From: Candidatus Korarchaeum cryptofilum OPF8
GTDB lineage: Archaea > Korarchaeota > Korarchaeia > Korarchaeales > Korarchaeaceae
Direction: 5' to 3'
DNA: 32,000 bases
NCBI RefSeq assembly: GCF_000019605.1
Contig: NC_010482.1
Span: 1,290,001 to 1,322,000 of the forward strand
A model generated the notes under the pieces. The model had not been told where the DNA came from and ran no database searches. It saw only the letters and a list, made by a program, of their open reading frames with translations. The position numbers were made by a program, and so were the translations under genes. Position 1 is the stretch's first letter. Every line of letters begins with the position of its first letter. This document shows, one piece after another, positions 9,329 to 31,063 of the stretch.

Positions 9329-9332
9329 TCTC

Positions 9333-9950
9333 ATGAGCTTCAGATCCGTGGGGAGGGTACTCCCCACTAAAGGGTTTTTGATAAGGCTGAGGGAGAGGAC
9401 AAGGCTCCTCAAGTCAGGAGTAGAAGCTCTGAAGATGAAGAGGGACCAGTTAGTTAGGGAGTGCCAGTCGCTGATACCCGATCTCAAGAGGAGGAGCGAT
9501 ATAGAGAGAAAGCTCGAGGATGCTTATAAGATTCTTAGGCTCGCTTATTCAGCCGCCGGACCTGAAGAGATGAAGAAAGCTGCTTTATTAACGACCCCCC
9601 TCCTCACGGAGATGAGAGTGAGGAGCGTGATAGGAGTAGAGGTACCAGAGACCAAAGTAATCGGTTTGAGTCTCGCTACTTCTCCCTCCCTAAATGCCGT
9701 GGTCATAGCTGCTTCTAGGAAATTCGCCGATGCTATAAGGGAGATGATGCCTCTGGTGAATTCTGAAGCGAAGTTTGAGAGGATTGCCACTGCTCTATCC
9801 GATACGATGAGGAAGGTGAATGCCCTAGAGAAGATAGTCATTCCGGATCATGAAGCCGCCATAAGGTACATAGAGGAGATGTTGGAGGAGGAATCCTTGG
9901 AGGAGTTCATCATGGTCAAGAAATATAGGGAGATAAAGAGGGGAGAGTAA
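9333..9950 (+). CDS. atpD: A-type ATP synthase subunit D (central stalk)
   Basis: 205 aa. Has the N-terminal LPTKGFLIRLRER...LKMKRDQL pattern of subunit D. AGGTGATC SD lies upstream. Confidence 0.9.
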   Translation: MSFRSVGRVLPTKGFLIRLRERTRLLKSGVEALKMKRDQLVRECQSLIPDLKRRSDIERKLEDAYKILRLAYSAAGPEEMKKAALLTTPLLTEMRVRSVIGVEVPETKVIGLSLATSPSLNAVVIAASRKFADAIREMMPLVNSEAKFERIATALSDTMRKVNALEKIVIPDHEAAIRYIEEMLEEESLEEFIMVKKYREIKRGE

Positions 9951-10972
9951 TGCTTAGGAATGCTAAGATAAAGTATCTCGTGGTTAGAACTCATGGCCTT
10001 TCCTCTCATTTGATAGATCCATCTGAACTTAGGTCTTGGATATTCATAGAGGACGATAGAGCTCTCTTCGATAAGATATCCCAGACGTCTTATGGCGGCT
10101 TCTTCGAGAAGCCGGAGGATCTATCGGATCCCGTTAAGATAGGAGAGGTCACTATGAGGGTCAACTTCATCAGAGCTAACAAGCTCATCTCTATAGCGAG
10201 AGCTTCCCCTCTGGAGAATATCCTCAGAGTCTACATGAGCAAGTACGACCTTGAGAACATCAGAAGGATCGTATTCTCACTGCTCTTCGGTAGGCTGGAG
10301 AGGGTAAGCTTGCTACCTCATCCTGGCTACTTGTACGATACCGCTAAGCTCTCGAAGGCGGAGAGGTTGGAAGATCTACTCGATCTCATTGAGGAAAGGA
10401 AGCTCTCATCCTTGATATCAAACTGGCTCTCTGGGGATAGGAATACGTCGGAGCTCGATCTCATACTGACTAAGGTTTACATAGACTCCCTAATCAAACC
10501 CCTCAAGAGGGGCACTCCCCTATATGAGATAATACGCTCCTACCTAGAGAACATGACCCTAGGCCTATTACTCAAGGCCAAGTACCTCGGGGTGAGCAAT
10601 GACCTCATAATCAGAGCGCTCTCCGGGGTCCCCTTCAAGAAGTTATTGGAGGCCGTTAGCCAGTCCGGGGATCTGTCGGACTTCTTAGATAAGCTTCTGA
10701 ATATAGCCCCATATAGGGAAGTATCCGTTGAGGTCAGGGACTCCTTGAGGGATGTCGGCGAACCATGGGTCATAGAGCACTCGGTACTCAAGAGGGCTTA
10801 TACGGAAGCGGTGAGGATCTCCATGATGAGTCCTATGAGCGAAGCCTACATATTATCTTACCTGATCTCATCGGAGTGGGAGTCCCAGAGCCTCAGGACC
10901 GTGCTCTTCGGTAGGATAAGTGGTGTTTCCAAGGATACGCTCTATCAACTCCTATCGCCAAGAGGTGAATAA
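9950..10972 (+). CDS. atpC: A-type ATP synthase subunit C (d-like)
   Basis: A 340-aa helical protein at the position and size expected for subunit C. The start overlaps the atpD stop (TAATG). Confidence 0.8.
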   Translation: MLRNAKIKYLVVRTHGLSSHLIDPSELRSWIFIEDDRALFDKISQTSYGGFFEKPEDLSDPVKIGEVTMRVNFIRANKLISIARASPLENILRVYMSKYDLENIRRIVFSLLFGRLERVSLLPHPGYLYDTAKLSKAERLEDLLDLIEERKLSSLISNWLSGDRNTSELDLILTKVYIDSLIKPLKRGTPLYEIIRSYLENMTLGLLLKAKYLGVSNDLIIRALSGVPFKKLLEAVSQSGDLSDFLDKLLNIAPYREVSVEVRDSLRDVGEPWVIEHSVLKRAYTEAVRISMMSPMSEAYILSYLISSEWESQSLRTVLFGRISGVSKDTLYQLLSPRGE

Positions 10973-11037
10973 TTTATCTATAAAATACTCCCCTCTTCCA
11001 TCTCTATCTTTTCTGTATTAAAATAAAAGGGGTTTGG
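10973..11037. terminator. Convergent intergenic T/A-rich region between atpC (+) and atpK (-)
   Basis: A 65-bp spacer with oligo-T tracts on both strands (ctatcttttctgtatt on + and ccccttttatttt on -). Archaeal termination commonly uses oligo-T. No strong hairpin seen. Confidence 0.35.
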
Positions 11038-11355
11038 TTATCCTCCCATTATCAGGAAGGCCACCAGAAGCCCATAAACCGCGACTCCCTCAGCCAGACC
11101 TCCTAATATCAGTACTTGAGTGAAAGCCTTGGGATTCTCAGCCAAGAGGGCGCTTCCTCCGACAGCCACACCGTGCAGAGCTATACCCGCTCCAATAGTA
11201 CTTCCCAAGATTGCTAGAGCCATGCCTACGAACTTTAAGCCGCTAATTTCTCCTGTAGTTGTCTGTTGAGCCGCTACTATAGAGAATGATAGCGGGAGCA
11301 ACAGCAGCGGGAGCCCAAGGACGAGATAAAGGGCCAGCTTCCTCCTCGAGGCCAT
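11038..11355 (-). CDS. atpK: A-type ATP synthase proteolipid subunit K (c subunit) with an N-terminal signal-like extension
   Basis: The C-terminal 70 aa form a canonical two-helix proteolipid (GAGIALHGVAVGG...LAEGVAVYGLLVAFLIM, with the carboxylate E). The ATG at 11355 is preceded by the perfect SD GGAGGTGATC. The ORF-track start at 11382 is further upstream and less likely. Confidence 0.9.
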   Translation of the reverse strand: MASRRKLALYLVLGLPLLLLPLSFSIVAAQQTTTGEISGLKFVGMALAILGSTIGAGIALHGVAVGGSALLAENPKAFTQVLILGGLAEGVAVYGLLVAFLIMGG

Positions 11356-11399
11356 GATGGGATCACCTCCCCCACGACCCAACTTAAAAATAAAATTTT

Positions 11400-13802
11400 T
11401 TATTCGAGGATGAGTGGCTCAATTAACTCCGAGGCCCTCCTGAATTCCCTACCTGAAGCCCTGTAGAACTTGGTGAAGAACTCATAGAACGTCAGCCTAG
11501 TCGCTTGTATGAATGAGAGGAGCCCTTCAAGTCCCATGACCAATATATTCATTAAGGAGAAACCTATGAGCGCCAGTGGGCTCAGGAGAGAGGCGAATTC
11601 ATTGACCATGATCGCCTCCTTCCCGAACATCAGCTGGACCGTGAGTATGCCGAAGACTTCATGAATAACTGCGAATGCAGCAAGCCTTATGTAAGAGAGT
11701 GAGTTGCTGAATAGCGCTAATACGCTCTCTAGAAGTGTTGATATCATCTCGGAGAGGCCCTCTCCTACCCCATGGCCCTCCCTTACGGATCTGATTACAG
11801 GCGCAACGCATGTTATCATGAGAGGTATCGACATCGCTTGGAATAAGGGGTCGCTTAGAGTCCCTCCTATGCTCGCATTATTCCTGATCGCTGCATAAAC
11901 AGCGCCAGCATACATTATGAAAGTCATGAGACCTCTATACTCTAGGAAGGCAGCGAAGAGGTCTCTCTCGAGCAGCTTATTTGCGGTGTTGATCAGGAAG
12001 CCTATGGACATCTGGAAGGCACCGAAGATGAGAGCTACAGCCATTAATCTCATTGTATCGTGCAGAGGGCTTAGGATAGGATGCTCAGTGATCGACATGA
12101 AGAAGAAAGCTCCATAAAGGTATCCGAAGATTGCTGCTGCGATCCCTGAATATAAGAGAATTCCACCTAGCTCCTTCATAGATCCGCTGGTCTTCTTCCA
12201 TAGGAATAGGCCGAATAGGGCGAGCGTTATCCCATGACCGAGATCCCCGAACATCATCCCGAACATCAAGGGGAAGAATATCGCGGTGAGAAAAGTCGGA
12301 TCCAGTTCTCTAACTGATGGAAGACCGTATAACTTGTGAGTGAGGAGTCTAATCGGCTTTATCACATTTGGAATCCTGATTCTTGAGGGAGCTTCCTCCC
12401 ATTCAGATTCCTCGAACTCGAGTGCTAAGAATTCTCCTAGTCTCTCCTCAAGCTTTCTCTCGAAGGATTCTTTCTTGGATTTGGGAACCCAGCCTGATAT
12501 CACACATATCTCCTCTCCCTCATACATGAGCATCCCGATCCTCTGCATCAGAGCCTTCTCCCTCAGGCTGAGCGCTATAGCAGCTAGCTCAGCTGAAATC
12601 TCAATTATTTTGCTCTTTAGATCTTTTTCCTTTTTCTTCAAGTCTTTTATGTAATTTTTGTCCACTAATTTGCTTAAATTTTCTACCTCTTCTTCAATTT
12701 TTCCTCTCTCAGCTATCAAGGGCTTCGCATTCTCTATTAGTTCGCTCACCCTCCTCTCAGCCTCACCGGCGACTACCACCTTTATCGAGAGGAGACCCTC
12801 CCTAATTGTTGAGAAATCTTTTCTAATATTTGAGAATTCATCTGAAATTTTTTCAATAAAACCCCTTATTTCAGAATCAATTGCATCAATTTCCTCCTCT
12901 AGTATGCTCATCTGTTGAGAGACCTTCGATATAACGGGCTCCCTCTCAGCGATTATAGGACTGAGCTCCGGAACCCTCTTCACGCTATCCCTCATCTTCT
13001 TCCACAGGGAATCTACTACTCTGAGCTCAGCCAACTTCTCCTTCTTAGAATTGCACTCTGCAATTTTATTTAAAATGTAATCCATTTTTCCCATTATTTC
13101 TTCAATTTTCTCAGATATTTTGGAAATTTCTGTTAAATTTTTTGCCTCACTTGAGAGCTCATTTATCCTAATCTTCGTTTCCTTCAGGGATTCCCTGATG
13201 TTCTTGATTATTTCATTGAGGTCCTCAAGCGATAGGGACTTATCGGAGGCCATCTTGAGGAGGGAAGATGACCTTAACAATCCCCTATCAATCTCTAGAA
13301 GGGCCCTTCCGAGCCTGAGTTTTGAGGGATCTTCCTCTAAGACTTCCAGAGCCGCGCTATAGTAGCTCAGGATCTTTCCCTCGATCTCGCTCAATTTTTC
13401 CTCAATTTCTTTCATTTTCTCCGATCTCTCTTTTAATAAATGCTTCGCTTTTTTCGAGAGTTCTATTTCTTTTTTAATCTTCAGGTATTCTCCCACTATG
13501 CCATCGAGTTCCGAGATCAGCGATTTACTATCATTTCCTCCCGTTGAGTTTCTCTCCGATGACTTCACTATAAGCGATAAGGGAATTCCCGAGAGTACAC
13601 TAGCTCTCTCTAATGCCCTAACGATCTCCTCATAAGTCTCAAGTTCCCTAGACTCGACATCTTGAGGAGGCTTCACACCGGGAAGCCCTTGGGGCGGTTC
13701 TAAGTGAACATCATCGAATTTCAGTAACTCAGAAGCCAGATCCTCCTTGTGCATCTTTGTCGTGTAAGCGTAGAACTTCAGGACCTCCTCGGGTTTCAGC
13801 AC
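11400..13802 (-). CDS. atpI: A-type ATP synthase subunit I (a subunit), long form
   Basis: The C-terminal ~300 aa are a polytopic domain with conserved LSYIRLAAFA (essential Arg) and MFGDLGHG. The proposed GTG start at 13802 gives the N-terminus (M)LKPEEVLKF, matching the MxxPExM N-terminus common in archaeal AtpI. The ORF-track ATG at 13853 would leave only 8 bp to the divergent wecB ATG. Confidence 0.88.
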   Translation of the reverse strand: MLKPEEVLKFYAYTTKMHKEDLASELLKFDDVHLEPPQGLPGVKPPQDVESRELETYEEIVRALERASVLSGIPLSLIVKSSERNSTGGNDSKSLISELDGIVGEYLKIKKEIELSKKAKHLLKERSEKMKEIEEKLSEIEGKILSYYSAALEVLEEDPSKLRLGRALLEIDRGLLRSSSLLKMASDKSLSLEDLNEIIKNIRESLKETKIRINELSSEAKNLTEISKISEKIEEIMGKMDYILNKIAECNSKKEKLAELRVVDSLWKKMRDSVKRVPELSPIIAEREPVISKVSQQMSILEEEIDAIDSEIRGFIEKISDEFSNIRKDFSTIREGLLSIKVVVAGEAERRVSELIENAKPLIAERGKIEEEVENLSKLVDKNYIKDLKKKEKDLKSKIIEISAELAAIALSLREKALMQRIGMLMYEGEEICVISGWVPKSKKESFERKLEERLGEFLALEFEESEWEEAPSRIRIPNVIKPIRLLTHKLYGLPSVRELDPTFLTAIFFPLMFGMMFGDLGHGITLALFGLFLWKKTSGSMKELGGILLYSGIAAAIFGYLYGAFFFMSITEHPILSPLHDTMRLMAVALIFGAFQMSIGFLINTANKLLERDLFAAFLEYRGLMTFIMYAGAVYAAIRNNASIGGTLSDPLFQAMSIPLMITCVAPVIRSVREGHGVGEGLSEMISTLLESVLALFSNSLSYIRLAAFAVIHEVFGILTVQLMFGKEAIMVNEFASLLSPLALIGFSLMNILVMGLEGLLSFIQATRLTFYEFFTKFYRASGREFRRASELIEPLILE

Positions 13803-13826
13803 ACTGTCACCCAAGGTCAGCGCATC

Positions 13827-13840
13827 TATATTTAATAAAA
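13827..13840. promoter_or_regulatory. Central TATA-like element (TATATTTAATAAAA) between divergent atpI and wecB
   Basis: It is the only A/T block in the region. Its centre (~13833) is about 31 nt from the atpI GTG at 13802 and about 29 nt from the wecB ATG at 13862. This fits leaderless or near-leaderless transcripts in both directions. Confidence 0.45.
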
Positions 13841-13861
13841 GATTTTTTCCCATGTGGATAG

Positions 13862-21239: not shown

Positions 21240-22859
21240 ATGAGCGAAAGTGGCCCGACTTTCTGGCTGGATAGGATAGCTAGGAATGTAGTCGAGAGGG
21301 AGAGGAGAATAGGGAGGAATCTAAAAGTCTTAAGGGTCGAATCTGGAATAGGAGCTAGTGGATTCCCGCATATAGGATCCGTTGGGGACTCCCTCAGAGC
21401 TTATGGTGTTAAGTTGGCTTTGGAGAGCATGGGCTACAAGAGCGAGTTAATAGCTTACAGCGATGATAGGGACGGCCTGAGGAAGGTCCCCGCCGGCATA
21501 CCTGAGGATTACAGCAAGTACTTAGGGATGCCCGTGAGTGAGATACCCGATCCCTTCGGATGTCATGTGAGCTACGGAGAGCACATGAGCTCTATATTGA
21601 TGGATGCTCTCGAGAAGCTCGGTATAGAGTTCACCTTCATTTCAGGGACTGAGGCCTATAGATCGGGCCTCTTGGATGAGCAAGTCAGTAAGCTGATAGC
21701 GAATAGCGGGAGAGTCGATAGGATCATAAGGGAGGAGGTCGGCACAAACAAACCGGAGGGATGGATCTATTACTGGCCAAAGTGCGAGAAATGTGGAAGA
21801 ATATATACGACTAGAGTAATTGAGGTGATTCCTGAGGAGGGGAAGGTCATTTACAAGTGCGATCAGGGATTCAAGGGTGTGAGAGGTTGCGGGCACGTGG
21901 GCGAGGCTAGCTACCTGAGGGGAGAGGGGAAGTTGTCCTGGAAGGGGGAGTTCGCCGCGAGGTGGTCGGCTTTGGGAATAGTATTTGAGCCCCACGGCAA
22001 AGATATATCTGATTCTTTCAGAGTAAATGCGAGAATAGCTAAAGAAGTTTTAGAATATGAGCCGCCTCTCACCGTCAGGTATGAGATGTTCTTAGATAGG
22101 ACGGGGAGGAAGATAAGCAAGAGCGCCGGGAATGTGATAACCCCACAGATGTGGATGGACTTTTCACCTCCAGAAGCTCTAAGAATGATGATGTTCAAAA
22201 GATACCACGGGACTAGAAGTATTTCTCTACAAAAGTCCCCCCTTTACATAAATGAGCTGGAACTAAACTTAAGGAGATATCACGGGCTGGAGAAGGTTGG
22301 GAGCGAGAGGGATAGAGTGACAATGAGGAGGCTCATGGAATTCACCTATCTTATGGAGGGAGTCCCGAATCCTCCTCCATATAGGTACTCAGCCGTGTTG
22401 AATGTCATCTCTATGCTCCCTCAGGAGCTCGGATTTGAGGAGATCCTGAGGATAACGAGAGAGCTCATATCCAGGTACTACGATATGAAACCCGAGGATC
22501 TTGAGAAAGATACTATCTTCGAGAGTTACGTCAGGTACGCATACAATTACGTTAAGTATTTTGGGAGGGGAGTCAGAGAGAAAATAGAAATCAAGAAGAG
22601 CACTTTAGATGCCATAAATTCGTTCATTGAGGCTATAAATCCTGACATGAGCCCCGATGAGATGCAGAACATCGCATTCGAAATAGCTAAAAAGTTTGAA
22701 GTACCGCCCAAGGAATTCTTCTCAGCCATATACTTGGCGGTGCTCGGTCAGCCCCAAGGACCCAGACTGGGGCCCCTGATCGGCAGGCTTGGGGTGCAAA
22801 GATTTAAGGAAATATTGATGAGATCCTTAGAGGAGAGGGGAGTAGTTGGAGAGGGATGA
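21240..22859 (+). CDS. lysK: Lysyl-tRNA synthetase, class I
   Basis: 539 aa. Has the HIGH-type motif PHIGS, the KMSKS-type motif KISKSAGN and a Cys cluster (CEKCGR...CD...GCGH), as in archaeal class I LysRS. Confidence 0.93.
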   Translation: MSESGPTFWLDRIARNVVERERRIGRNLKVLRVESGIGASGFPHIGSVGDSLRAYGVKLALESMGYKSELIAYSDDRDGLRKVPAGIPEDYSKYLGMPVSEIPDPFGCHVSYGEHMSSILMDALEKLGIEFTFISGTEAYRSGLLDEQVSKLIANSGRVDRIIREEVGTNKPEGWIYYWPKCEKCGRIYTTRVIEVIPEEGKVIYKCDQGFKGVRGCGHVGEASYLRGEGKLSWKGEFAARWSALGIVFEPHGKDISDSFRVNARIAKEVLEYEPPLTVRYEMFLDRTGRKISKSAGNVITPQMWMDFSPPEALRMMMFKRYHGTRSISLQKSPLYINELELNLRRYHGLEKVGSERDRVTMRRLMEFTYLMEGVPNPPPYRYSAVLNVISMLPQELGFEEILRITRELISRYYDMKPEDLEKDTIFESYVRYAYNYVKYFGRGVREKIEIKKSTLDAINSFIEAINPDMSPDEMQNIAFEIAKKFEVPPKEFFSAIYLAVLGQPQGPRLGPLIGRLGVQRFKEILMRSLEERGVVGEG

Positions 22860-23322
22860 AAGGATAAAAAATTTATTGATGCTCAGGGACTTCCTGAAGA
22901 GGAGGGCCGAGAAGCTAGAGAAGGAACTCATATCCCTTAGGAGGATGATAGAGTCTCTAGATGAGGTTCTCCTAGAGCAGACGATTGTAACAGCAGATAA
23001 ACTTAAAGAAACTCGGAAGAATATTGAAGAGAGGAAATTGTACTCTGATGATGGCAAGTTCCTTGGAAATCTGATTCTGGATAGGGATAAGGGGACGCTC
23101 ACATTCACCCCTGAGGATAATGTCCTCATAAACTCAAAGGAAAGACCGATAAGGTCCTTCCTAGCTAGGAAGATAGAGGAGCTGGGCGGGAGCATGGAAG
23201 TCGAGGAAGATGCTAGAGGGATGCTCAGAGGCCTCAAGGTGATGCTCAAGGACAGGAAGGATGTAGATAGGATAGTCAACTACATGAGGTGGGCATTCTC
23301 GAAATCTATCGTCAGCCAATAA
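22846..23322 (+). CDS. Hypothetical coiled-coil protein
   Basis: About 158 aa, with a charged helical N-terminus then a mixed domain. Start is either the TTG at 22846 (14-nt overlap with lysK) or the ATG at 22879. I recognise no family. Coding is supported only by length, composition and the absence of a better competing frame. Confidence 0.5.
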   Translation: MERDERIKNLLMLRDFLKRRAEKLEKELISLRRMIESLDEVLLEQTIVTADKLKETRKNIEERKLYSDDGKFLGNLILDRDKGTLTFTPEDNVLINSKERPIRSFLARKIEELGGSMEVEEDARGMLRGLKVMLKDRKDVDRIVNYMRWAFSKSIVSQ

Positions 23323-23578
23323 AGATGGGAAGTGAATTCGCATTTACTGAGAGAAGGATATATATTATAACTAAGATGACCACTACTTCTAGAATTTCTT
23401 TACTAGTATTCTCGAGGAAGGGGAGGAGTATGAACGCTATTATCACAAGCACCACTATTGCCGTAGATAGAACTGGATTTATGATGGGCCATAAATCCCT
23501 CAAAAGTTCAAGTAAATTAGATAGTATGAATGCTAGAGCCCCTCTCAGATATTCGAGGAAGAGGGAGCTAGGATCCAA
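23312..23578 (-). CDS. Small polytopic membrane protein, last gene of the small-protein operon
   Basis: 88 aa with 2-3 hydrophobic helices. The start overlaps the upstream gene stop by 11 nt. Preferred over the + strand ORF 23289-23672, which is compositionally poor and cuts across two coupled - strand genes. Confidence 0.5.
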   Translation of the reverse strand: MDPSSLFLEYLRGALAFILSNLLELLRDLWPIINPVLSTAIVVLVIIAFILLPFLENTSKEILEVVVILVIIYILLSVNANSLPIFIG

Positions 23579-24371
23579 TTTCCATCTCCCTCAAGCACAC
23601 GAAACCTTTATATTCCCTCCCTTTAGCTATTATCAACGCGTAGGGATCCTTCAGAGTTATATAGAGGTGTAAGTAGACCCTAGGCTTTTCATCCTCGAAC
23701 CAATAGAAATAGCTATAATTTATCTTAAGCTCTAAATCAGAAGAGTATTCCTTCCTTATCTCCGCTACCGCCTCTTTAAGGCAATTGAAGAAAGCTGATA
23801 AATTATATTTTGAGGTAGAAAGCTCCCCTTCCAGTGAGCACTTAGAAACCGCGTTTTTTATATCTCTCTCGAGCCAGTCAAGCATCCTCTTCATCCTGTA
23901 GTAAGCCGTTATCCCGCATCCCATCGCATCAATGTTACGCTCCCCCTTTATCCCCGTTAATCCATCTTCTATGCCTACTTTACCTTTTGCAGTGAAGCCT
24001 ATGCCTCCATTCCTGCACTTCTCCCCAAAATAGCCTTTTTCTCCCCCGCGAGTTTCGAAGGCTTCGAAGCTCAGATCTATGGATGGGAGGAAGGCCTTGT
24101 TGCTCAAATCGCTAGCGATCATTTCCCTGAACTCATTACCATCTATTTTCGGAAGCACGTTGCAAGCGGTATTATTCATGGAATAGAGGAAGCTATCGAC
24201 CTTATACCTGGCGTATATCAGAGCTCTAGGCTCAATGGATTCGAGCTCAGCATATAAAGAGTACGCTCTCAGCTTACCCTTATACTCATAATACTCCGCC
24301 TGAGGCGTATAATGAGTAACTAAGAAGAAAGCCAGCATTAAAGCGAAAAATACTATTAGGGCTTCTCTCAT
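23568..24371 (-). CDS. N-terminally anchored extracytoplasmic protein (pilus-associated candidate)
   Basis: 267 aa with one N-terminal hydrophobic helix (MREALIVFFALMLAFFLV). The remainder is soluble and contains several Cys. The ATGA overlap with the upstream gene at 24368-24371 indicates translational coupling. Confidence 0.6.
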   Translation of the reverse strand: MREALIVFFALMLAFFLVTHYTPQAEYYEYKGKLRAYSLYAELESIEPRALIYARYKVDSFLYSMNNTACNVLPKIDGNEFREMIASDLSNKAFLPSIDLSFEAFETRGGEKGYFGEKCRNGGIGFTAKGKVGIEDGLTGIKGERNIDAMGCGITAYYRMKRMLDWLERDIKNAVSKCSLEGELSTSKYNLSAFFNCLKEAVAEIRKEYSSDLELKINYSYFYWFEDEKPRVYLHLYITLKDPYALIIAKGREYKGFVCLREMEIGS

Positions 24372-24637
24372 CCTCCTCCCCTCTTCTCGCTCACCTCCAC
24401 TTTCAGGAAGCCATTCGGACCTGGGATCATGAGGCAGTAAGCTATTTCAGAGGAGCTGCATTCCTTAACCGTCACATTCATCAGTAACTTATATCCCAGC
24501 TCCTTAACTCGAGCTAACGCTTTCAATGCAGCTTCCTCCTTCCACTCCACCTGATAGCCCTGATGGATGAAGATGGGCTTCAGGAATACGAAGAGGAGCA
24601 AAAAAACGCTTATGAGTAGAGCTAAGAGTAGCCTCAT
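24368..24637 (-). CDS. Small N-terminally anchored protein (minor-pilin-like candidate)
   Basis: 89 aa with the N-terminal helix MRLLLALLISVFLLLFVFL and a small beta-rich C-domain. Coupled on both sides by 4-nt overlaps. Confidence 0.55.
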   Translation of the reverse strand: MRLLLALLISVFLLLFVFLKPIFIHQGYQVEWKEEAALKALARVKELGYKLLMNVTVKECSSSEIAYCLMIPGPNGFLKVEVSEKRGGG

Positions 24638-24702
24638 ACTAACGCCCAGATTATCAGGAAGCTGAGGGCAGCTACGACTATTAGGAGCTCGAGTTCATCC
24701 AT
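24634..24702 (-). CDS. 22-aa single-helix micro-ORF (MDELELLIVVAALSFLIIWALV)
   Basis: Not in the ORF track (too short). The ATG at 24700-24702 starts 1 nt after the upstream TAA (24704-24706). Its TGA (24634-24636) overlaps the next gene's ATG (ATGA). The peptide is one hydrophobic helix with an acidic N-terminus. Translated by hand codon by codon. Confidence 0.4.
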   Translation of the reverse strand: MDELELLIVVAALSFLIIWALV

Positions 24703-24703
24703 A

Positions 24704-24913
24704 TTAACCCCCATAGCCACTATCTAATCCATAGTCACTAGCGTCTAATCCTAGGGATTCAGCCAGCCTTTGAACTTCCTCTATAGCTTTTAGGATCTCC
24801 TCAGCTTCGCTTTTATCGAAGAGTTGATCCGCTAGTGTTAGAAGAGATATTAAAGCTAAGACGATAGCTAAAGTCATCAGATCTAAGAGTATCTCCCTAA
24901 TGCCTCCCTCCAT
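24704..24913 (-). CDS. Small pilin-like protein (Flp-sized)
   Basis: 69 aa. MEGG-IREILLDLMTLAIVLALISLL is followed by a short acidic helical tail. It shares the I-[ER]-x-[IV]-L-L-x-L N-terminal motif with the 133-aa and 87-aa proteins. Overlaps the upstream gene by 17 nt. Confidence 0.55.
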   Translation of the reverse strand: MEGGIREILLDLMTLAIVLALISLLTLADQLFDKSEAEEILKAIEEVQRLAESLGLDASDYGLDSGYGG

Positions 24914-25298
24914 CTGACCACCTCAACTCAGCTACCGCAAAACCATCCGCGGAGCGACGCCATGAGGCTACGAACCTCCCGTAAAGGTAAGCCTCCCCTT
25001 CACAGCTCAATTGAAACGGGTAGCTCAAGCTCACCGAAGAGTTCCCTGCCTCAAGATATACAGTACCGCCCTCGCATCTATACACAACTTTAACGGGCAG
25101 GAATACGTAGCTTGAAGCGACTCCGCCCCCGATACTATTAGTTATAGCTAGATCAACTGCCCTCGCAGCGACATTGAGGCAATTCTGATCCCTCTCCCCC
25201 GCTACTTGAGCCATCCCCTGATTTATCGCTGGCAATATCGCTATGATCGTAGCCAATCCTATTAACGTTAACAGCACCTTCTCAATTGAGAGAATCAT
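24897..25298 (-). CDS. Pilin-like protein with N-terminal hydrophobic helix and beta-rich Cys-containing domain
   Basis: 133 aa. MILS-IEKVLLTLIGLATIIAIL is followed by a globular part with 3 Cys. This is pilin-like architecture. Confidence 0.6.
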   Translation of the reverse strand: MILSIEKVLLTLIGLATIIAILPAINQGMAQVAGERDQNCLNVAARAVDLAITNSIGGGVASSYVFLPVKVVYRCEGGTVYLEAGNSSVSLSYPFQLSCEGEAYLYGRFVASWRRSADGFAVAELRWSDGGRH

Positions 25299-25422
25299 TC
25301 AACTCCCTCCACAGCAGGATGAAGAAGAGAGCCGCGGCTAAGGGATAGTAGAGAGGAGCTGATGATAGCGAGATCAGGATTAGGAGCATGCCGAGCAGTA
25401 GCGAGTATATGAGCCTCATCAT
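25282..25422 (-). CDS. 46-aa two-helix micro-ORF (MMRLIYSLLLGMLLILISLSSAPLYYPLAAALFFILLWRELNDSLN)
   Basis: Not in the ORF track. The ATG ATG at 25417-25422 follows the GAGGA-containing sequence GAGGAAGCGAATTAT. Its stop at 25282-25284 gives a 17-nt overlap with the next gene, the same overlap length as the 24897-24913 junction. The peptide is a hydrophobic hairpin. Hand-translated. Confidence 0.4.
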   Translation of the reverse strand: MMRLIYSLLLGMLLILISLSSAPLYYPLAAALFFILLWRELNDSLN

Positions 25423-25498
25423 ATAATTCGCTTCCTCTAATCTTTAAGATCTAAGAACTTTTTGAAAATTAAATAATTCTTTCGCGAATATATCATGC

Positions 25499-25505
25499 TT
25501 TAAAT
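25499..25505 (+). promoter_or_regulatory. TATA-like box (TTTAAAT) for the 87-aa pilin-like gene
   Basis: Centred about 23 nt upstream of the ATG at 25525 in a 102-bp A/T-rich divergent spacer. Fits a leaderless transcript. Confidence 0.45.
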
Positions 25506-25524
25506 CCCCTAGCCCCTAACTATT

Positions 25525-25788
25525 ATGCAACAGACTATAGAGACCATCCTCCTGATCCTGATAACGGTGGCTCTGATAATCACCGCACCTTTAATGCTGG
25601 CAGAAGGAGCGTGGAAGATAGCCTCGGAAGCGGGGACTAAGGCATGGACCGATGTAGGTAACGCTTGGAACAGCTGGTTGAACTTCTATAACTGGCTCAT
25701 GGATTCCATAGATAATCTCCTCTTCGGAGGAGGTAAAGGAGGAACTGCGACTAATACCACCGCAGGGAATTCTACGTCTGGGAAATAA
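25525..25788 (+). CDS. Small pilin-like protein, candidate major subunit
   Basis: 87 aa. MQQTIETILLILITVALIITAPL matches the archaeal class III signal core QxSxExxxL (as Q-Q-T-I-E-T-I-L-L) starting at residue 2. It has a Trp/Asn-rich middle and a G/T/N/S-rich tail with the N-glycosylation sequons NTT and NST. It has its own promoter and an oligo-T terminator. Confidence 0.6.
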   Translation: MQQTIETILLILITVALIITAPLMLAEGAWKIASEAGTKAWTDVGNAWNSWLNFYNWLMDSIDNLLFGGGKGGTATNTTAGNSTSGK

Positions 25789-25796
25789 CGAGCTCC

Positions 25797-25816
25797 CTTT
25801 TCTTCTCTCTTTTTTA
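25797..25816 (+). terminator. Oligo-T/pyrimidine tract after the 87-aa gene
   Basis: cttttcttctctctttttta begins 9 nt after the stop codon. T-runs are the usual archaeal termination signal. Confidence 0.4.
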
Positions 25817-25847
25817 TAAAGAAATCGAGCTCTTTAGAGCGGGTAAC

Positions 25848-26759
25848 TCACAAAAAGTGGAAGAGGTAGCTTGCTAGTAGGAATGCTGAGGAATAAGCTA
25901 GAGCTGCCTGAATCGAGTAAGCTAGAGGCTTCGATATCAGTATAGCTATAGCTAATCCTAAGGAGAAGAGAGTTAGTTGAGGAGCGTTTAAGCCCAGCTG
26001 CCCCAAAATATAGCTGAGAGCTACGTTTATCGCTGCAACTACGATGAGAGAAATTATGAGGAGGATGCGAGTGGATTTTATGTTGGCCTTCCACTCATCC
26101 AGTATCTCATTTAAGGCCCTCAGTATTGAGGCAGTCCTGCGCATCATATTCTTCAATGCCTCCCTGTCCGATACGGTTTTCAGGAACTCGAAGTATTCTG
26201 GTAGCTCAACATCATCGACTACGCTAGCCTCATATAATTTGAGGTGCCTCAAAGCGTATATTACGCCTGATCCTCTCTCCAAATCGCTGGCCATAGCATC
26301 AGCTACATTTGGATCTTCTATCTTCAGCTCGCTATATCCTGGCATGAGAGGGTATAATGAGAGCAGGAGGAGGGGGAGGAAGGGAGGTATAATTATTCTG
26401 TAGCTGAGGAACGCTATGAACAAAGATAAGCCTAGGGAGAGAGTTATCCCTATCTCTATCCAGTTCCTCCTGACCTTTAAATCCTCCTCATAGAGCTTCG
26501 AGATCAAATTTAGTGCTGCTTTCGTAGCTGATTCCTCCTCAGCCCCCTCCAGTAAGCCAGCCAAATACTTTTTGAGGAAACCTAAGGCATCGTAAACCGC
26601 TTTTTTCGCAGAGATTCCTTCAACCGCTACGCAGCCATATCTGTTTAAGGCCATCAAGCCAAGAGCGGGGGAGCTGAGGTAACCTATCACAAATTTCTGC
26701 ACTAATTTTATCCTCTTTACGGTCTTACTCTCCGCCTTTTCTCCTAGCAACCTCCTCAT
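25848..26759 (-). CDS. Polytopic membrane protein, putative assembly platform (TadB/C- or FlaJ-like by context)
   Basis: 303 aa. It alternates a helical cytoplasmic segment (1-100), 2 TM, a second soluble helical segment (~145-215) and 2-3 TM. The ATG overlaps the ATPase gene end by 35 nt. Homology to T2SSF is inferred from architecture and position, not verified. Confidence 0.6.
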   Translation of the reverse strand: MRRLLGEKAESKTVKRIKLVQKFVIGYLSSPALGLMALNRYGCVAVEGISAKKAVYDALGFLKKYLAGLLEGAEEESATKAALNLISKLYEEDLKVRRNWIEIGITLSLGLSLFIAFLSYRIIIPPFLPLLLLSLYPLMPGYSELKIEDPNVADAMASDLERGSGVIYALRHLKLYEASVVDDVELPEYFEFLKTVSDREALKNMMRRTASILRALNEILDEWKANIKSTRILLIISLIVVAAINVALSYILGQLGLNAPQLTLFSLGLAIAILISKPLAYSIQAALAYSSAFLLASYLFHFL

Positions 26760-28209
26760 TCGTATCCGCTCCCCTCAGCTTCCTCAAGAAGTCAAGGTAT
26801 TCTAAGTTCATATCAACCGGATGCCAGCCATCGTTCCACCTCCTCATCTCAGCTACTCTCTTATCCCTCATCAGTATAGCTAGGGTATCCCTAGGCAGCA
26901 TCTGCCCGAAGGCTTCGAACTTCTCTACGAGCTCCTGAAAACCCCTAGCGTGAGTAGTAGCTATCACCTTTAAACCGGAGCTATAAGCTAGATTGAAGGC
27001 TTCAGCGGCCTCTTTAGTCAGTATCTCCCCCAAAAATACGATATCAGGATTTCTGTGAAGCAAAAAGCGGATGAAATCGAATTTTCCGCTGACCTCGTAA
27101 GGGCTGTGGTGCATCCCATAAATGCTTAAATCCTCTATTTCGCGGACCTCCTCAACGCTTATCAACCTGAGCTCCTCAGGAAGGCAGGCAAGCAAGGCGT
27201 TAGCTAGCGTAGTCTTCCCAACGCCAGTGCGACCGAAGATTAAGATGGGAAAACCAAGTTCTATACTCTTGAGGATCGTTGATGCTTCCTCCTCCTTTAT
27301 ACTCCCCAGCTTTATTAATCTTGGCAGGGAGAGCTTCGATATAGCTGATAAATTCCTTATATCCAGCGCCCCTCTGCTCGCTGGAGGAATATCTAAAGCT
27401 ATCCTGAACTTGTTCTGGCCAAGAGTTATGTCCACCTCAGCTAAGCTTTTTCTGAAATCGAAGCCAGCGTTGATATCCGCTTCGATAAATGTCTTGAACT
27501 TCTCTAACTCTTCCTCGTCGAATACGTAATTCTTCACTTCGAACCTCCCGTGAATTATGTGATCCAGTATGAGCGGGGAGTTGAGGAAAGCGTAGCCCTC
27601 AGTCACATCCTCAGCCATCATTATGGCCAGAGCGGGCCAGAGCTTAGTCGAGCGTATCGATGCCTCTAAAGCTAATTCCTCATCTTCGCAGCCAACCTCC
27701 TCAAGATACTCCATAGCTTTAGCTTTCCTGAGCTCCACGCTCTTCCAGAGCAGCTCTCCTTGATTCTCATAGCTCTCTGGATATAAGCCTTTCAGCATAT
27801 TCGCTAAGATATGAGCCTGGATCAAGCGATCTGGATAGCTGTGAGGGTAATAAACGGCTTCTCTACCTGAAAGTATGAGCTTCCCTCCGGGAAAGGGTAT
27901 CTCAATGCCTTCGGGTGGCGGAGGTAGCTGAAGCGTTACTATCTCCTCTCTTCTGTTTACCTTGGGCCTCGGTATCCTTGGGAGCTTCCTTAAGAGCTCC
28001 TCCACCTCATCTAGAGCGAAGAAAAGGTAAAGCTCTCTAGCGACTCGCTTAAAAAATGGAGATTTTATTTTGAGGGGTCTTTTGAACCTTTTATTTATCT
28101 CATTCAGCTTACTTTCCATCCTCCCGAAACTGACCTTGAGAGCTCTCCCCTTATACCTCCTCAACAGCTGCTGAGCTACCTGCTCCGCTCTCCTCTCCGC
28201 TTCTATCAA
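26725..28209 (-). CDS. Type II/IV secretion-system family ATPase (PilB/FlaI/TadA/VirB11 superfamily), divergent
   Basis: Has Walker A GRTGVGKTT (27208-27234), Asp-box-like ISVEEVREI, Walker B-like NPDIVFLGEI and His-box-like LKVIATTHA, preceded by ALDIRNL. The start is uncertain: TTG at 28209 (59-nt overlap with the upstream gene), TTG at 28164, or ATG at 28119. Confidence 0.85.
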   Translation of the reverse strand: MIEAERRAEQVAQQLLRRYKGRALKVSFGRMESKLNEINKRFKRPLKIKSPFFKRVARELYLFFALDEVEELLRKLPRIPRPKVNRREEIVTLQLPPPPEGIEIPFPGGKLILSGREAVYYPHSYPDRLIQAHILANMLKGLYPESYENQGELLWKSVELRKAKAMEYLEEVGCEDEELALEASIRSTKLWPALAIMMAEDVTEGYAFLNSPLILDHIIHGRFEVKNYVFDEEELEKFKTFIEADINAGFDFRKSLAEVDITLGQNKFRIALDIPPASRGALDIRNLSAISKLSLPRLIKLGSIKEEEASTILKSIELGFPILIFGRTGVGKTTLANALLACLPEELRLISVEEVREIEDLSIYGMHHSPYEVSGKFDFIRFLLHRNPDIVFLGEILTKEAAEAFNLAYSSGLKVIATTHARGFQELVEKFEAFGQMLPRDTLAILMRDKRVAEMRRWNDGWHPVDMNLEYLDFLRKLRGADTNEEVARRKGGE

Positions 28210-28786
28210 CTTCAGCTCCCTCCTCGCCCCTTCTTAATAAAGCTAAGAGCAATCCGGCTATTATTACAGCTAAGCCTAAGGGAAGGAACACCGACTCTTG
28301 ATGGGCTTGAGCTTCGTATCTCACGTTATCCCCTCTCAACAAAATCTTAGAGTTGGGAGTGCAGTAGACCTTGATCCATCCTTCCTCTTCCTCCACCCTG
28401 GCCTTCTCCCTGACCAAGTTGATATCGTAAACTGAAGCTTTACCCTCTATATTCAGCTCCTCAGTCCTGAAGAGCAGAGTAGCTCCATCCACGAGCTTAT
28501 AGCTTTTTCCATTGATTTTCACATCATTTGAGGCTACTACCATCGGTAGCTTAGCCTTCACGCTCAAATTGCTACCTTCAGCTACCTTCCTGGCATCTAT
28601 TCTGTAGAGGCTCAAGCATACGCTTCCATTCCCAGTGACTTTAACATAGGTAGTGTTGCAATCCAGTAATTCGTAGGTCTCAGCTTCGAGGAAGCCCACT
28701 TTATGCCATACTAATGTATTCGTACCCAGATAAGCGAGGAAGATGCCTAAAAATATGAGGGGAATTGCGATTCTCCTCATCCTCAT
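28151..28786 (-). CDS. Bitopic membrane protein (N- and C-terminal TM helices, extracytoplasmic beta-rich middle, acidic tail)
   Basis: 211 aa. Has MRMRRIAIPLIFLGIFLAYLG at the N-terminus and FLPLGLAVIIAGLLLALL near the C-terminus. The ATGA overlap with the 703-aa gene at 28783-28786 indicates coupling. I recognise no family. Confidence 0.6.
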   Translation of the reverse strand: MRMRRIAIPLIFLGIFLAYLGTNTLVWHKVGFLEAETYELLDCNTTYVKVTGNGSVCLSLYRIDARKVAEGSNLSVKAKLPMVVASNDVKINGKSYKLVDGATLLFRTEELNIEGKASVYDINLVREKARVEEEEGWIKVYCTPNSKILLRGDNVRYEAQAHQESVFLPLGLAVIIAGLLLALLRRGEEGAEVDRSGEESGAGSSAAVEEV

Positions 28787-30894
28787 AATTTCAACCTCCT
28801 AATAGCTAGAGCTGCAAAGAGCATAGTTATCGGCAGCAGGTACCAGGGTATCGAGAACTCATTCCTGGCTGCGACTTCGCAGGGTAGCTCTAAAACCTCG
28901 AGCTCTGAAGAGCTACCATTCATAGTATTCGTAATATTCGCTGTCTTCTCTACTGTCTCTACTGGAGGCCTGGCTTTCACTGTGAAGCTAACTTCTCTGG
29001 GCTTTCCATCCTTATAGTAGTATTTAGCTACCCATACCCCTTCCTTATCAACCACATACTTTAATATAGTGAGCCCAGTGTTAGCGACTTCCCTCTTCTC
29101 CGGGTTTATCAGGACGAGCATGCCTTTATACGGCGAGAACACTTTCACGGTTACTTCATCTCCCACGTAAGGCTCAGGAGGATGTACCTCTATCTTCACC
29201 TCACTAGTGTTAGAGGCACTCTGTTTAGTGCCTGAGGCACTCATGTTAGTGCCTTTAGTGCTGTTAGCACTCGTCCCTGAGGAGCTACTATTCGAGCTTG
29301 AGCTACTTCCACCTGAGCTACCTGATGATCCACCACTACCTCCTGAACCTCCTGATGATCCACCTCCTGATGAACTACCTCCTGAAGAGCCTCCACCCGA
29401 TCCTCCTCCACCTGAGCTACCTCCCCCGCCTGGAGTCACTTCCACACTTACTTCCTTGGTCACAGTTACGCCATCCATATCAGTAGCCACTACCTTTATC
29501 GTTAAGGTGCCCTCTTTACTCGGCGTATATTCGAAGCTCCCAGTTCCTGAGAATTCCTTATCTCCGATGATAGTCCTCACATTTAGGCCTGGCGAATCGT
29601 CGCTAGCCTCTACCGTCACAGTTATAGTCTCTCCCACCTTCGCCTCAGTCTTATCCACGCTCACCGAAACTTCAGGCTCCTCGTTGACTAGAGTGAATGA
29701 TGCTTTAGCTTCGCTCTCCCCATCCACATCCCTAGCTGTAGCTAAGATAGTGTAGCTCCCAGCCCTCAAATCAGCTGGAATCGTTATAGAATTGCTCCCC
29801 TTCCCTATACTGAATGTTTTATCTCCTATAGCTACGCTACCCGTAACGCTATCCCCATCCTCCTCGGTCACCGTGACGGTAAAGCTGTCGCCTCTCTTCA
29901 TCTGATTTGGAGCATCTATCGTAACCGAAGGTGGCGAGCCTCTCACTTTTATGCTGAAGCTCTTGCTAGAGCTCCCATCCACGTCGCTTGCTTGAACTGA
30001 GGCTGTATACTCCCCCTTCGGCAGATCTATCGTTACTGAATTGCTCCCCCTGCTTAAAGAGTAACTCTTATCGCCTATATTTAGCGTAGCTGTGACTGTA
30101 TCACCATCGGCCTCATCTATAGTTACCGTTATAGCTTCGCCTCTCTTCACTTCGTTAGGTGCGTTTACGCTTATTGAAGGCGGTGAACCCAGAAGCGTGA
30201 CGCTTATGCTCTTACTCTTAGAGTCCGAAACACCTGAATATGTTTTGGTGGCTATAACAGTTATCTGCATTGTTCCTGCGGGTTTGTTCCTCATATCGTA
30301 ATTTATCGTGCTGCTGAAGCTTCCAGCTCCGGTTTTAGCTAAGGTGTAGCTGTTCCCGTTGAAGCCAGCTATAACGTTTAGAGAGCCGTAGCTATCATCT
30401 ATAACACTTAAACCGCTAGCCGTTATCGTTACGGAGCCTTGCTTGGGCAAAGCCGTTGGATTAGCTGATGCTGAGAAGTCGGGGATGCTCACTATATAAG
30501 CTTCGGAGGAGTATTTTTCCAGAGGACCCGTGCTACCCGGAATATCACCTGGATAACATGCCGGCCCGCTGATCTCGCCTGAAACACGGATCTTGAACTT
30601 GCCCCCGGGTACGTCGCTCACTGTACAATAACCGCTCCTAGTGCAATACTCCTTCGAGGTCTGACAATCACCGTTGGTCGCGCTCACACTGATGCTGCAG
30701 CTGCCCCCACATTCGCAGCTTCCATCAACACTAGCTGAAACATCTATACGTTGCCCGGGCTTCACTGCTGCAGGAACGTTCGCATGCAGGCTTATGCTTC
30801 CAGAGCACCTATTCCCTAAACATTTATTGACTTCACCAATGGCTAGGGGTATGATCAATGAGAATAACAAGAGGACCAAGACGGACCTATGCAT
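28783..30894 (-). CDS. Large secreted/anchored surface protein: signal peptide, Cys-rich head, Ig-like tandem repeats, Gly/Ser linker, C-terminal TM anchor
   Basis: 703 aa. The layout is: signal MHRSVLVLLLFSLIIPLAIG; 11 Cys within aa 25-113; about 5 beta-sandwich-like modules including 3 clear ~84-aa repeats; a ~77-aa G/S/N/T low-complexity tract; and a C-terminal IPWYLLPITMLFAALAIRRLKL anchor. It is the first gene of the ATPase operon. Confidence 0.8.
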   Translation of the reverse strand: MHRSVLVLLLFSLIIPLAIGEVNKCLGNRCSGSISLHANVPAAVKPGQRIDVSASVDGSCECGGSCSISVSATNGDCQTSKEYCTRSGYCTVSDVPGGKFKIRVSGEISGPACYPGDIPGSTGPLEKYSSEAYIVSIPDFSASANPTALPKQGSVTITASGLSVIDDSYGSLNVIAGFNGNSYTLAKTGAGSFSSTINYDMRNKPAGTMQITVIATKTYSGVSDSKSKSISVTLLGSPPSISVNAPNEVKRGEAITVTIDEADGDTVTATLNIGDKSYSLSRGSNSVTIDLPKGEYTASVQASDVDGSSSKSFSIKVRGSPPSVTIDAPNQMKRGDSFTVTVTEEDGDSVTGSVAIGDKTFSIGKGSNSITIPADLRAGSYTILATARDVDGESEAKASFTLVNEEPEVSVSVDKTEAKVGETITVTVEASDDSPGLNVRTIIGDKEFSGTGSFEYTPSKEGTLTIKVVATDMDGVTVTKEVSVEVTPGGGGSSGGGGSGGGSSGGSSSGGGSSGGSGGSGGSSGSSGGSSSSSNSSSSGTSANSTKGTNMSASGTKQSASNTSEVKIEVHPPEPYVGDEVTVKVFSPYKGMLVLINPEKREVANTGLTILKYVVDKEGVWVAKYYYKDGKPREVSFTVKARPPVETVEKTANITNTMNGSSSELEVLELPCEVAARNEFSIPWYLLPITMLFAALAIRRLKL
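29203..29433 (-). repeat. Low-complexity Gly/Ser(-Asn/Thr) linker coding tract
   Basis: aa 488-564 read GGGGSSGGGGSGGGSSGGSSSGGGSSGGSGGSGGSSGSSGGSSSSSNSSSSGTSANST.... The DNA is an imperfect cctcctga/ccacc-type short repeat, which also creates the spurious Pro-rich + strand ORF. Confidence 0.85.
29437..30192 (-). repeat. Three tandem ~84-aa Ig-like protein repeats (aa 235-486)
   Basis: The repeats are GSPPSISVNAPNEVKRGEAITVTIDEADGDTVTATLNIGDKSYSL..., GSPPSVTIDAPNQMKRGDSFTVTVTEEDGDSVTGSVAIGDKTFSI... and EEPEVSVSVDKTEAKVGETITVTVEASDDSPGLNVRTIIGDKEFS.... Each ends in ..A.D.DG......(F/V)(S/T).(K/L/E)V. Similarity is at the protein level, and the DNA has diverged. Confidence 0.7.
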
Positions 30895-30989: not shown

Positions 30990-31063
30990 TGCGGCCGCCG
31001 GGATTTGAACCCGGGTCTGGGACGTGGCAGGCCCCCATCCTGTCCAGGCTAGACTACGGCCGC
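30990..31063 (-). tRNA. tRNA-Gly (anticodon GCC)
   Basis: Hand-folded. Acceptor stem is GCGGCCG/CGGCCGC with discriminator A. Anticodon stem is GGGGC/GTCCC with loop CTGCCAC. T-arm is CCGGG-TTCAAAT-CCCGG. 74 nt, no intron, no encoded CCA. Confidence 0.9.

Follow-up and report, generated by a model that had tools for sequence, protein, structure and literature searches.

A probable Tad/Epd-like type IV pilus locus of Korarchaeum cryptofilum, with candidate pilins that appear to lack leader peptides

How might a type IV filament be built when its subunits begin where a leader peptide should already have been removed, and no enzyme for removing it is encoded nearby? The question is raised by a cluster of 12 open reading frames (ORFs) of Candidatus Korarchaeum cryptofilum OPF8, lying between positions 23312 and 30894 of the 32,000-nucleotide (nt) stretch of DNA analysed here (the window, whose coordinates are those of NC_010482 minus 1,290,000). 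To our knowledge, prepilin leaders and a dedicated peptidase are treated as universal and defining for type IV filament machines. A 2026 preprint survey of archaeal systems counts class III signal peptidase among the components that they all share, and mentions neither Korarchaeota nor leaderless subunits; a full-text literature search for leaderless pilins found nothing, and the state appears to be undescribed. We think it likely that the locus encodes a Tad/Epd-like type IV pilus whose pilins are secondarily without leaders and are most likely assembled without peptidase processing. That pilins of the genus Korarchaeum are natively leaderless and form a type IV filament with no need of a prepilin peptidase at all, we propose only tentatively, at slightly worse than even chances.

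A sequence-only reading of the window, made by a model without database searches, had described a type IV filament-like locus with atypical, unrecognisable components. Its core holds: there is a T2SSE ATPase, a short T2SSF/TadC platform, a pilin-like gene and a set of small anchored proteins. The ATPase (494 amino acids (aa), TTG start, 26725..28209, - strand) matches PF00437 (T2SSE) in Pfam at 53 bits (E 2e-14, cutoff 24.9). It had been called motif-divergent with a short C-terminal domain; the second description is right, only 73 residues following the His box, and the first is not, since all four motifs are canonical (Walker A GRTGVGKT at 326, Asp box EEVREIED at 353, Walker B IVFLGE at 390 and His box TTHA at 418). 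The closest solved relatives in PDB are afGspE (2oap, E 1.9e-15), FlaI (4ii7, E 2.6e-13) and VirB11, with CpaF more distant by score than afGspE or FlaI; the top NCBIfam match is a TadA-family model. In a search of 5.8 billion proteins, the named members of the ATPase family down to ~40% identity were Korarchaeota or unclassified Thermoproteota, below which match scores dropped sharply to Asgard archaeal and bacterial CpaF-like proteins; the ATPase falls in a Korarchaeota-specific clade. The platform protein (303 aa, 25848..26759, - strand) scores 23.1 bits against PF00482, just below the cutoff of 25.2, and has four transmembrane (TM) helices; a unit made of a helical cytoplasmic domain and then a pair of TM helices occurs twice. 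Distant relatives encode it as two separate genes (~165 and ~190 aa); in locus L088 the product of the second matches the C-terminal half of the K. cryptofilum protein (E 6.5e-5). Its short size had been noted correctly; that this is unusual does not stand, half-size TadC proteins being a known class (PMC4858521).

This motor had in fact been catalogued before. The window ORFs coincide exactly with coordinates in Table S4 of Makarova, Koonin and Albers 2016 (PMC4858521), with the ATPase as gi 170290933 (arCOG01818), the platform as gi 170290932 (arCOG01811, "TadC") and the 703-aa protein as arCOG02508, a secreted PKD protein; the ATPase and short TadC are listed there as a type IV pilus-like pair. 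In the tree of that study the ATPase belongs to clade 4, on a very long branch (1.65) that is sister to a Thermoproteales-only clade. The label "unrecognisable" therefore fails for these three catalogued proteins; the small, 211-aa and 267-aa proteins have no significant Pfam or NCBIfam match. The same census gives three Korarchaeum neighbourhoods in total and no pilin for K. cryptofilum, the other two neighbourhoods being a surface protein and a FlaK/PulO peptidase ~0.9 Mb away; the 211-, 87-, 133- and 89-aa genes of the present locus had no arCOG, were not FlaFind-positive and were not flagged as pilins. What is new here is thus the assignment of a pilin set and of its family, the ATPase/TadC core being already known: relative to the clade 4 census, small genes are now linked to a class III pilin family, in a form without leaders, and the proposed pilin set would fill that gap for Korarchaeum.

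The best candidate for a major pilin is p87 (87 aa, 25525..25788, + strand). The sequence-only reading had picked out a separately promoted, pilin-like + strand gene here, and the protein does belong to a class III pilin family and has its own TATA-like element. This short protein is all-helical, its Glu6 is near-invariant and its Gly/Thr/Asn tail bears two N-glycosylation sequons; its AlphaFold2 model has helices at 2-36 and 40-66, a disordered tail and no globular head. Profile searches with p87 and its relatives collected 30 proteins, and an exhaustive hidden Markov model (HMM) search of 1.84 billion representatives collected 36 at E <= 0.001. Five of these 36 are much longer (435-3142 aa), several of them matched through repeated copies of the C-terminal helix; P0166 (3142 aa) and P0173 (1356 aa) match, in 5-9 repeated stretches, the C-terminal amphipathic helix of the p87 profile (positions 48-79). 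The small members that we read are of 47-151 aa; across 26 family members Leu10 never varies and Glu6 hardly does.

Nearly all of the small members read from outside the genus Korarchaeum bear a class III signal, in which a basic leader of 6-25 residues with Gly (occasionally Ala) as its last residue precedes a hydrophobic helix with an early Glu. The consensus in distant Korarchaeota is ...FLxDE[SR]G↓[LV]TQTxExALL (the arrow marks the cleavage site), and examples are ...KRFIKGFLEDESG↓LTQTTETALLIAATIAAFF, ...FLADERG↓VTQTVEQALLIAATVAAFF and ...LLMDKRG↓SPLLEEGLLVGLALVLF, the last from a group named UPF0333 by JGI. A much shorter leader of six residues is found in P0160 (MRRRRG↓VTGTLEQALLVAVTIALF, beginning MRRRRG↓VTGTLEQALL), whose C-terminal half is close to that of p87. 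P0160 is encoded as a stand-alone gene (L090 3585-3812 and L091 1169-1396) between XPB/DUF790-type genes and the LeuRS gene, and is a candidate trans-encoded pilin for those Korarchaeota whose ATPase operon has no adjacent pilin genes.

Within the genus the leader is gone. Eight of the eight Korarchaeum clusters with an intact N-terminus (six from the profile search, plus P0162 and P0179 from the exhaustive search) are leaderless, starting M-[QIL]-[QN]-T-x-E-T-I-[IL]-L or a close variant; the N-termini read include MQQTIETILL, MINTMETIIL, MLNTVETIIL and MLNTAEIIIL. Met1 of p87 aligns with the +1 residue of the cleavage site in the homologous prepilins, and its Glu6 with their Glu. A longer p87 ORF is excluded by an in-frame TAG five codons upstream of the ATG, together with a conserved TATA-like box: the element GCTTTAAAT lies ~25 nt upstream of the ATG and is conserved in four Korarchaeum loci, a spacing that implies a leaderless mRNA. 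The intergenic region between p87 and the divergent small-gene operon B (25423..25524) has such a TATA-like element ~25 nt upstream of the ATG on each side, which suggests that the mRNAs of both are leaderless. That p87 begins at the cleavage position of its relatives is the most unusual feature of the locus, and was overlooked in the sequence-only reading. Judged from this register, p87 is a likely major pilin that secondarily lost its leader.

A second subunit candidate, p133 (133 aa, 24897..25298, - strand, operon B), likewise starts directly at its hydrophobic helix (MILSIEKVLL), with Glu6 and three Cys invariant. Neither p87 nor p133 has a class III signal peptide, and the maximal ORF of each starts at the +1-aligned position. 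The models of both have a hydrophobic N-terminal helix; that of p133 (predicted local distance difference test (pLDDT) score 86.6) continues it over residues 2-55 (54 residues) and follows it with six strands forming a beta-sheet head. A long N-terminal helix with a beta domain had been suggested as the fold to look for, and the model has it, although a Foldseek comparison with PDB gave no significant match, so that naming any known pilin structure for p133 is ruled out. On its modelled architecture, the classical one of pilins, p133 is a candidate minor pilin. Beyond Korarchaeum, where its homologs form nine clusters (54-98% identity), it has only a weak in-register homolog in L088 (E 0.002) with a TTG start at the equivalent position. 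For p69 (69 aa, 24704..24913, - strand, operon B) the N-terminal hydrophobic helix comes after MEGG or MEGS, as in the start MEGG↓IREILL, and is followed by an amphipathic helix; its positional homologs in L088, L092 and L093 have 117-118 aa and begin MN[RI]EVG↓EA[LI]RTLIF. Going by these N-termini, p69 is possibly a pseudopilin with a very short leader.

The sequence-only reading had also stated that no prepilin peptidase is present in the window, and a homology search of all 32 kb for an A24 peptidase bears this out (all E > 0.4). What such a locus looks like with its peptidase is shown by relatives whose ATPases are ~41-42% identical, L088, L092 and L093. In three different chromosomal neighbourhoods these keep one order: a ParA/MinD-like gene, membrane and surface proteins, the ATPase, two platform halves and a Peptidase_A24 of 128-134 aa (40 bits against a cutoff of 26.5, with conserved Asp and GGGD motifs). 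A leader-bearing pilin gene of 92-114 aa precedes the ATPase in L088 and L092, and in all three a convergent operon matches p133, p69, p22, p89, p267 and p88 in order and size. Because the neighbourhoods are unrelated, the small-gene operon can be said to travel with the ATPase clade and the prepilin peptidase; co-occurrence with the ATPase in other genomes, to which the sequence-only reading had looked as support, is thereby established for these three loci. Compared with such sister Korarchaeota, the Korarchaeum locus has lost its in-locus A24 peptidase and ParA-like gene and has fused its platform halves.

Three further observations concern these relatives. Divergent from their small-gene operon is a conserved gene for a soluble protein of 71-87 aa (...LVPFLRPS...IRIANP...; L088 15373-15588, L092 13377-13622, L093 13479-13742, all on the + strand) that has no counterpart in the window; as p87 equivalents these genes were rejected, their products being soluble and unrelated. 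A further locus, L004, has the 3' half of a matching small-gene operon before its contig ends. There, between the ATPase with its split platform and the small-gene operon, stands a gene for a TFIIB-like Zn-ribbon protein (10614-11573, - strand), which echoes the TFIIB association of the pilin-less Thermoproteales subclade 4D (PMC4858521).

Closer to home, the complete layout is kept in L001, L006 and L007 (ATPase 78-89% identical) and in L086/L087 from a more distant Korarchaeum species (p133 62% identical), and is partly visible in L011. The conserved order is surface protein, bitopic protein, ATPase, platform, divergent p87, then p46-p133-p69-p22-p89-p267-p88. In L002, L003 and L008-L010 (ATPase 51-59% identical) operon A is found elsewhere, followed by SMC, and has no small genes beside it.

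Protein conservation in four to six related Korarchaeum loci, with a clear excess of third-position and synonymous changes for most of the ORFs, marks the small ORFs as real genes and not chance. Codon comparison with L001 gave 20 synonymous and 4 non-synonymous changes for p89, and 27 and 16 for p133. The codon-position bias of p88 is weaker than that of the other ORFs; p22 has too few changes for the codon test, and its ORF is kept even where the ATPase is only ~42% identical.

Several results weigh against a leaderless pilus, and we set them out together. The housekeeping flanks of the locus are also syntenic within the genus, so gene adjacency there provides no independent functional link, and in L002 and L008-L010 operon A is kept but no small-gene cluster adjoins it. 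Confidence in the p87 model is low (pLDDT 63). When the p87-family profile was compared with PDB its four matches were all archaeal pilins or archaellin-like and aligned at the cleavage site, but individually they are non-significant (E 0.046-2.9). No member of the family reaches threshold for Flp_Fap, Pilin_N or Class_IIIsignal. Foldseek of the p133 model against PDB gave at best E 0.04, with TM-score <= 0.26, and hhalign places the p133 and p87 families in register at a probability of only 3%, which does not establish that the two N-termini share an origin. The FlaK/PulO-family peptidase encoded elsewhere in the K. cryptofilum genome (gi 170290017, arCOG02298; PMC4858521) could trim a few N-terminal residues. 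The filament itself is predicted from the genes.

That peptidase is the basis of the alternative that survives best, although we judge it unlikely: a canonical type IV pilus in which the unlinked enzyme cuts off a minimal leader, one to four residues long, such as M↓QQTIE, exposing Gln as in EppA substrates, or MEGG↓IRE in p69. After its Met, p87 does read Q-x-T-x-E-x-x-x-L, near the QXSXEXXXL with Gln at +1 of EppA-cleaved pilins, and in p69 and its relatives Gly or Ser immediately precedes the hydrophobic helix. In other Korarchaeum species, however, the start is MINTME or MLNTVE and position 2 is not Gln; p87 and p133 lack both a basic residue and a Gly or Ala at -1, whereas all the leader-bearing relatives read have Gly (occasionally Ala) there, usually after a basic residue. 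It is moreover Met itself that aligns at +1, and the dedicated in-locus peptidase of the relatives is missing at this locus. A mature-like pilin that begins with Met is also chemically plausible, because methionine aminopeptidase leaves Met in place before Gln, Ile or Leu and type IVb pilins naturally have Met, Leu or Val at +1.

We give much less credence to a machine that is no pilus at all, its ATPase and platform having been turned to another use, such as exporting or anchoring the surface protein S703, and its small proteins being ordinary membrane-anchored factors. The very long branch of the ATPase beside a Thermoproteales-only clade would fit such a history, as would the description of a pilin-less, TFIIB-linked subclade 4D (PMC4858521), given the TFIIB-like gene adjoining the ATPase in L004; operon A stands without adjacent pilin-like genes in L002, L008-L010 and L089, and p133 has no fold match to known pilins by Foldseek. 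Set against this, the homologs of p87 are proteins with class III leaders encoded beside an A24 peptidase and an ATPase of the same clade, p133 is built like a pilin and its N-terminal helix contains an invariant Glu, and P0160, a p87-like pilin with a short leader, exists as an isolated gene away from ATPase loci. A decaying remnant, its pilins inactivated by loss of leader and peptidase, is scarcely credible: leader, in-locus peptidase and ParA/TadZ-like gene have indeed gone relative to L088-type loci, but the twelve genes are intact and kept across Korarchaeum to ~57% ATPase identity with synonymous excess in most, the ATPase motifs are intact, and the leaderless N-terminus with its near-invariant Glu6 is itself conserved. 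Homology to class III pilins and purifying selection together make both repurposing and decay unlikely.

Which known filament does the proposed pilus most resemble? Of the systems in the 2016 census, the locus itself is one of clade 4 (its ATPase and TadC are listed there), and it agrees with the Thermoproteales 4B/4G systems in having a large surface protein that contains Cys and is anchored by a C-terminal TM segment, together with numerous small secreted components that evolve fast (PMC4858521). Its likeness to Tad/Flp pili lies in the short helical major pilin without a globular head and, among the distant Korarchaeota relatives, in the leader ...FLKDESG↓, the ~130-aa A24 peptidase without a methyltransferase domain, the platform as two half-size genes, the ParA/MinD-like gene (a weak CbiA match) and the small pseudopilin-like genes. 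It differs in that Flp_Fap stays below threshold, the ATPase is nearer to archaeal GspE/FlaI than to CpaF and there is no secretin; within the window, moreover, there is neither a peptidase nor a ParA-like gene, a single gene encodes the platform and the pilins are leaderless, so that a TadZ/CpaE ParA-like ATPase, a TadV peptidase and separate TadB and TadC genes are all lacking there.

Flp_Fap is nonetheless the commonest sub-threshold Pfam match of the p87 family (five of 26 members, the best at E 0.018 and 14 bits against a cutoff of 32, none of them p87). Class_IIIsignal (PF04021), against which the sequence-only reading had proposed comparing the ORFs, gave no match at E up to 1 for p87 or for 54 family members. 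An identification of the family as Flp or Class_IIIsignal was rejected, those 54 members showing only scattered sub-threshold Flp_Fap or Pilin_N matches.

Epd- and Tad-type pilins are both described in the 2026 preprint as short and without a globular domain. The Epd pili of Methanococcus maripaludis, built from DUF361/Class_IIIsignal pilins processed by EppA, share with p87 a short major pilin lacking such a domain and the mature start Q-x-[ST]-x-E-x-x-x-L, which p87 matches directly after Met; they differ in that the p87 family has no Class_IIIsignal match, the locus has no EppA-type peptidase, sister Korarchaeum species have I/L-N-T-x-E and not the Gln motif, and Epd ATPases are in clade 1 and not clade 4 of the published tree (PMC4858521). 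With the archaellum the locus has in common a FlaI-like ATPase and a FlaJ/TadC-like platform, but Pfam and NCBIfam searches of the locus ORFs found no FlaH/KaiC, FlaF/G, FlaX/CDE or archaellin-sized subunit. The earlier verdict that this is not an archaellum, which had cited the missing FlaH/KaiC-like gene and flagellin-sized subunit, is therefore sustained; FlaH, FlaF and FlaG being absent, we reject that identity, and the archaellum is reported as absent from Korarchaeum (PMC4858521). Type IV secretion was rejected as well, since genes of the VirB4/VirD4 type are absent.

We propose that the twelve genes make up the one type IV pilus-like (Tad/Epd-like) surface filament system of K. cryptofilum. 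The ATPase, of hexameric type, and the short platform would extract membrane-embedded subunits and polymerise them; p87, with its probably glycosylated tail and its own promoter, would be the major pilin, and p133 and probably p69 minor or priming pilins. Translation of p87 and p133 would start at the former +1 position, with insertion and assembly proceeding without prepilin-peptidase processing. S703 may be a membrane-anchored S-layer-like protein or adhesin of the kind described for 4B/4G systems (PMC4858521), with the 211-aa protein B211 as a bitopic partner encoded with the motor, and p89 and p267 (extracytoplasmic) and p46, p22 and p88 (membrane) would be conserved accessory components.

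If this is true, the locus is a natural type IV filament without a prepilin peptidase, an exception to the rule of A24-matured prepilins, and its living relatives preserve the successive stages of leader loss: long (FLKDESG↓), short (MRRRRG↓) and absent (M). A leaderless pilin lineage would amount to a natural experiment on what the leader does, with leader-bearing sister lineages for comparison; candidate roles are membrane orientation, blocking of premature assembly and exposure of an N-terminus that pairs with the conserved Glu. From the searches, too, comes a small family of short archaeal pilins that had no name before and whose leaders are Flp-like; it has a bearing on the proposal that bacterial Tad pili originated in archaea.

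The remaining components are less easily assigned. S703 (703 aa, 28783..30894, - strand), the first gene of operon A, had been described as a large Cys-rich Ig-repeat protein leading the ATPase operon, and so it is: it has a Sec-type signal peptide, a Cys-rich N-terminal region, PKD/Ig repeats (Pfam matches PKD, PKD_4 and Big_13), a Gly/Ser-rich linker and a C-terminal TM anchor with a basic tail, with 10 Cys in all and TM segments at 4-22 and 680-698. Orthologs head the ATPase operon in L001, L007, L002, L010 and L086. An antisense ORF of 182 aa (29207-29755, + strand), rich in Pro, Leu and Glu, mirrors the Gly/Ser-rich linker and is almost certainly spurious. B211 (211 aa, 28151..28786, - strand, operon A) has TM helices at both ends (3-21 and 166-184) around a beta-rich ectodomain with three N-glycosylation sequons, and an acidic/Gly-rich C-terminal tail; without a match in Pfam or NCBIfam, it is kept upstream of the ATPase in L009, L010 and L002 at identities down to 26%.

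Operon B, all on the - strand, begins with p46 (46 aa, 25282..25422), a hydrophobic membrane protein, probably a two-helix hairpin, that is kept in L001, L006, L007, L011 and L086 and was not found in the distant loci. The micro-protein p22 (22 aa, or 28 aa from an upstream GTG; 24634..24702) has a single TM helix and an acidic N-terminus, and is kept in every Korarchaeum locus and, as an ORF of 33 aa in the corresponding place of the operon, in L088, L092 and L093; its N-terminus is acidic in all relatives, and we rejected it as a pilin. Both p89 (89 aa, 24368..24637) and p267 (267 aa, 23568..24371, the largest component of the operon) have signal-anchor-like N-termini; p89 has positional homologs of 90-93 aa in L004, L088, L092 and L093, and p267, with 6 Cys, is collinear with proteins of 303-322 aa in L088 and L004. 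As with the other small ORFs, neither gave anything significant in Pfam or NCBIfam. The last gene, p88 (88 aa, 23312..23578), has a TTG start kept in L001, L006, L007 and L086, and positional homologs of 103-117 aa in L088, L093 and L004. All seven small proteins had been credited with an N-terminal or sole hydrophobic helix, which needs correcting for p88, whose two TM helices are internal (36-54 and 62-80), and for p46 if it is a hairpin, and is left as it was for the others.

All 12 ORFs of the locus are present with the lengths, strands and coordinates listed in the sequence-only reading, and the junctions agree with it too, both from coordinates and from the sequence. In operon A, S703 and B211 overlap by ATGA and the ATPase and platform genes by 35 nt; in operon B the successive junctions are a 17-nt overlap, another of 17 nt, a 1-nt gap, and overlaps of 4, 4 and 11 nt.

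Archaeal genes surround the locus in the window: A-type ATPase, thermosome, class I LysRS and Nep1. The region 5523-13853 holds genes of the A-type ATP synthase (A, B, D and others) on the + strand, with the gene for subunit I (817 aa, 11400-13853) on the opposite strand. Adjoining the small-gene operon in all Korarchaeum loci is a gene for a coiled-coil-like protein (158 aa, window 22846-23322, + strand) that has no Pfam match, overlaps the 3' end of the LysRS gene and has a weak homolog in L013. At the other end, directly upstream of the S703 gene and on the same strand, is tRNA-Gly(GCC) (30990-31063, - strand), and between the two lies the TATA-like ATATTTAAT, ~25 nt before the S703 ATG.

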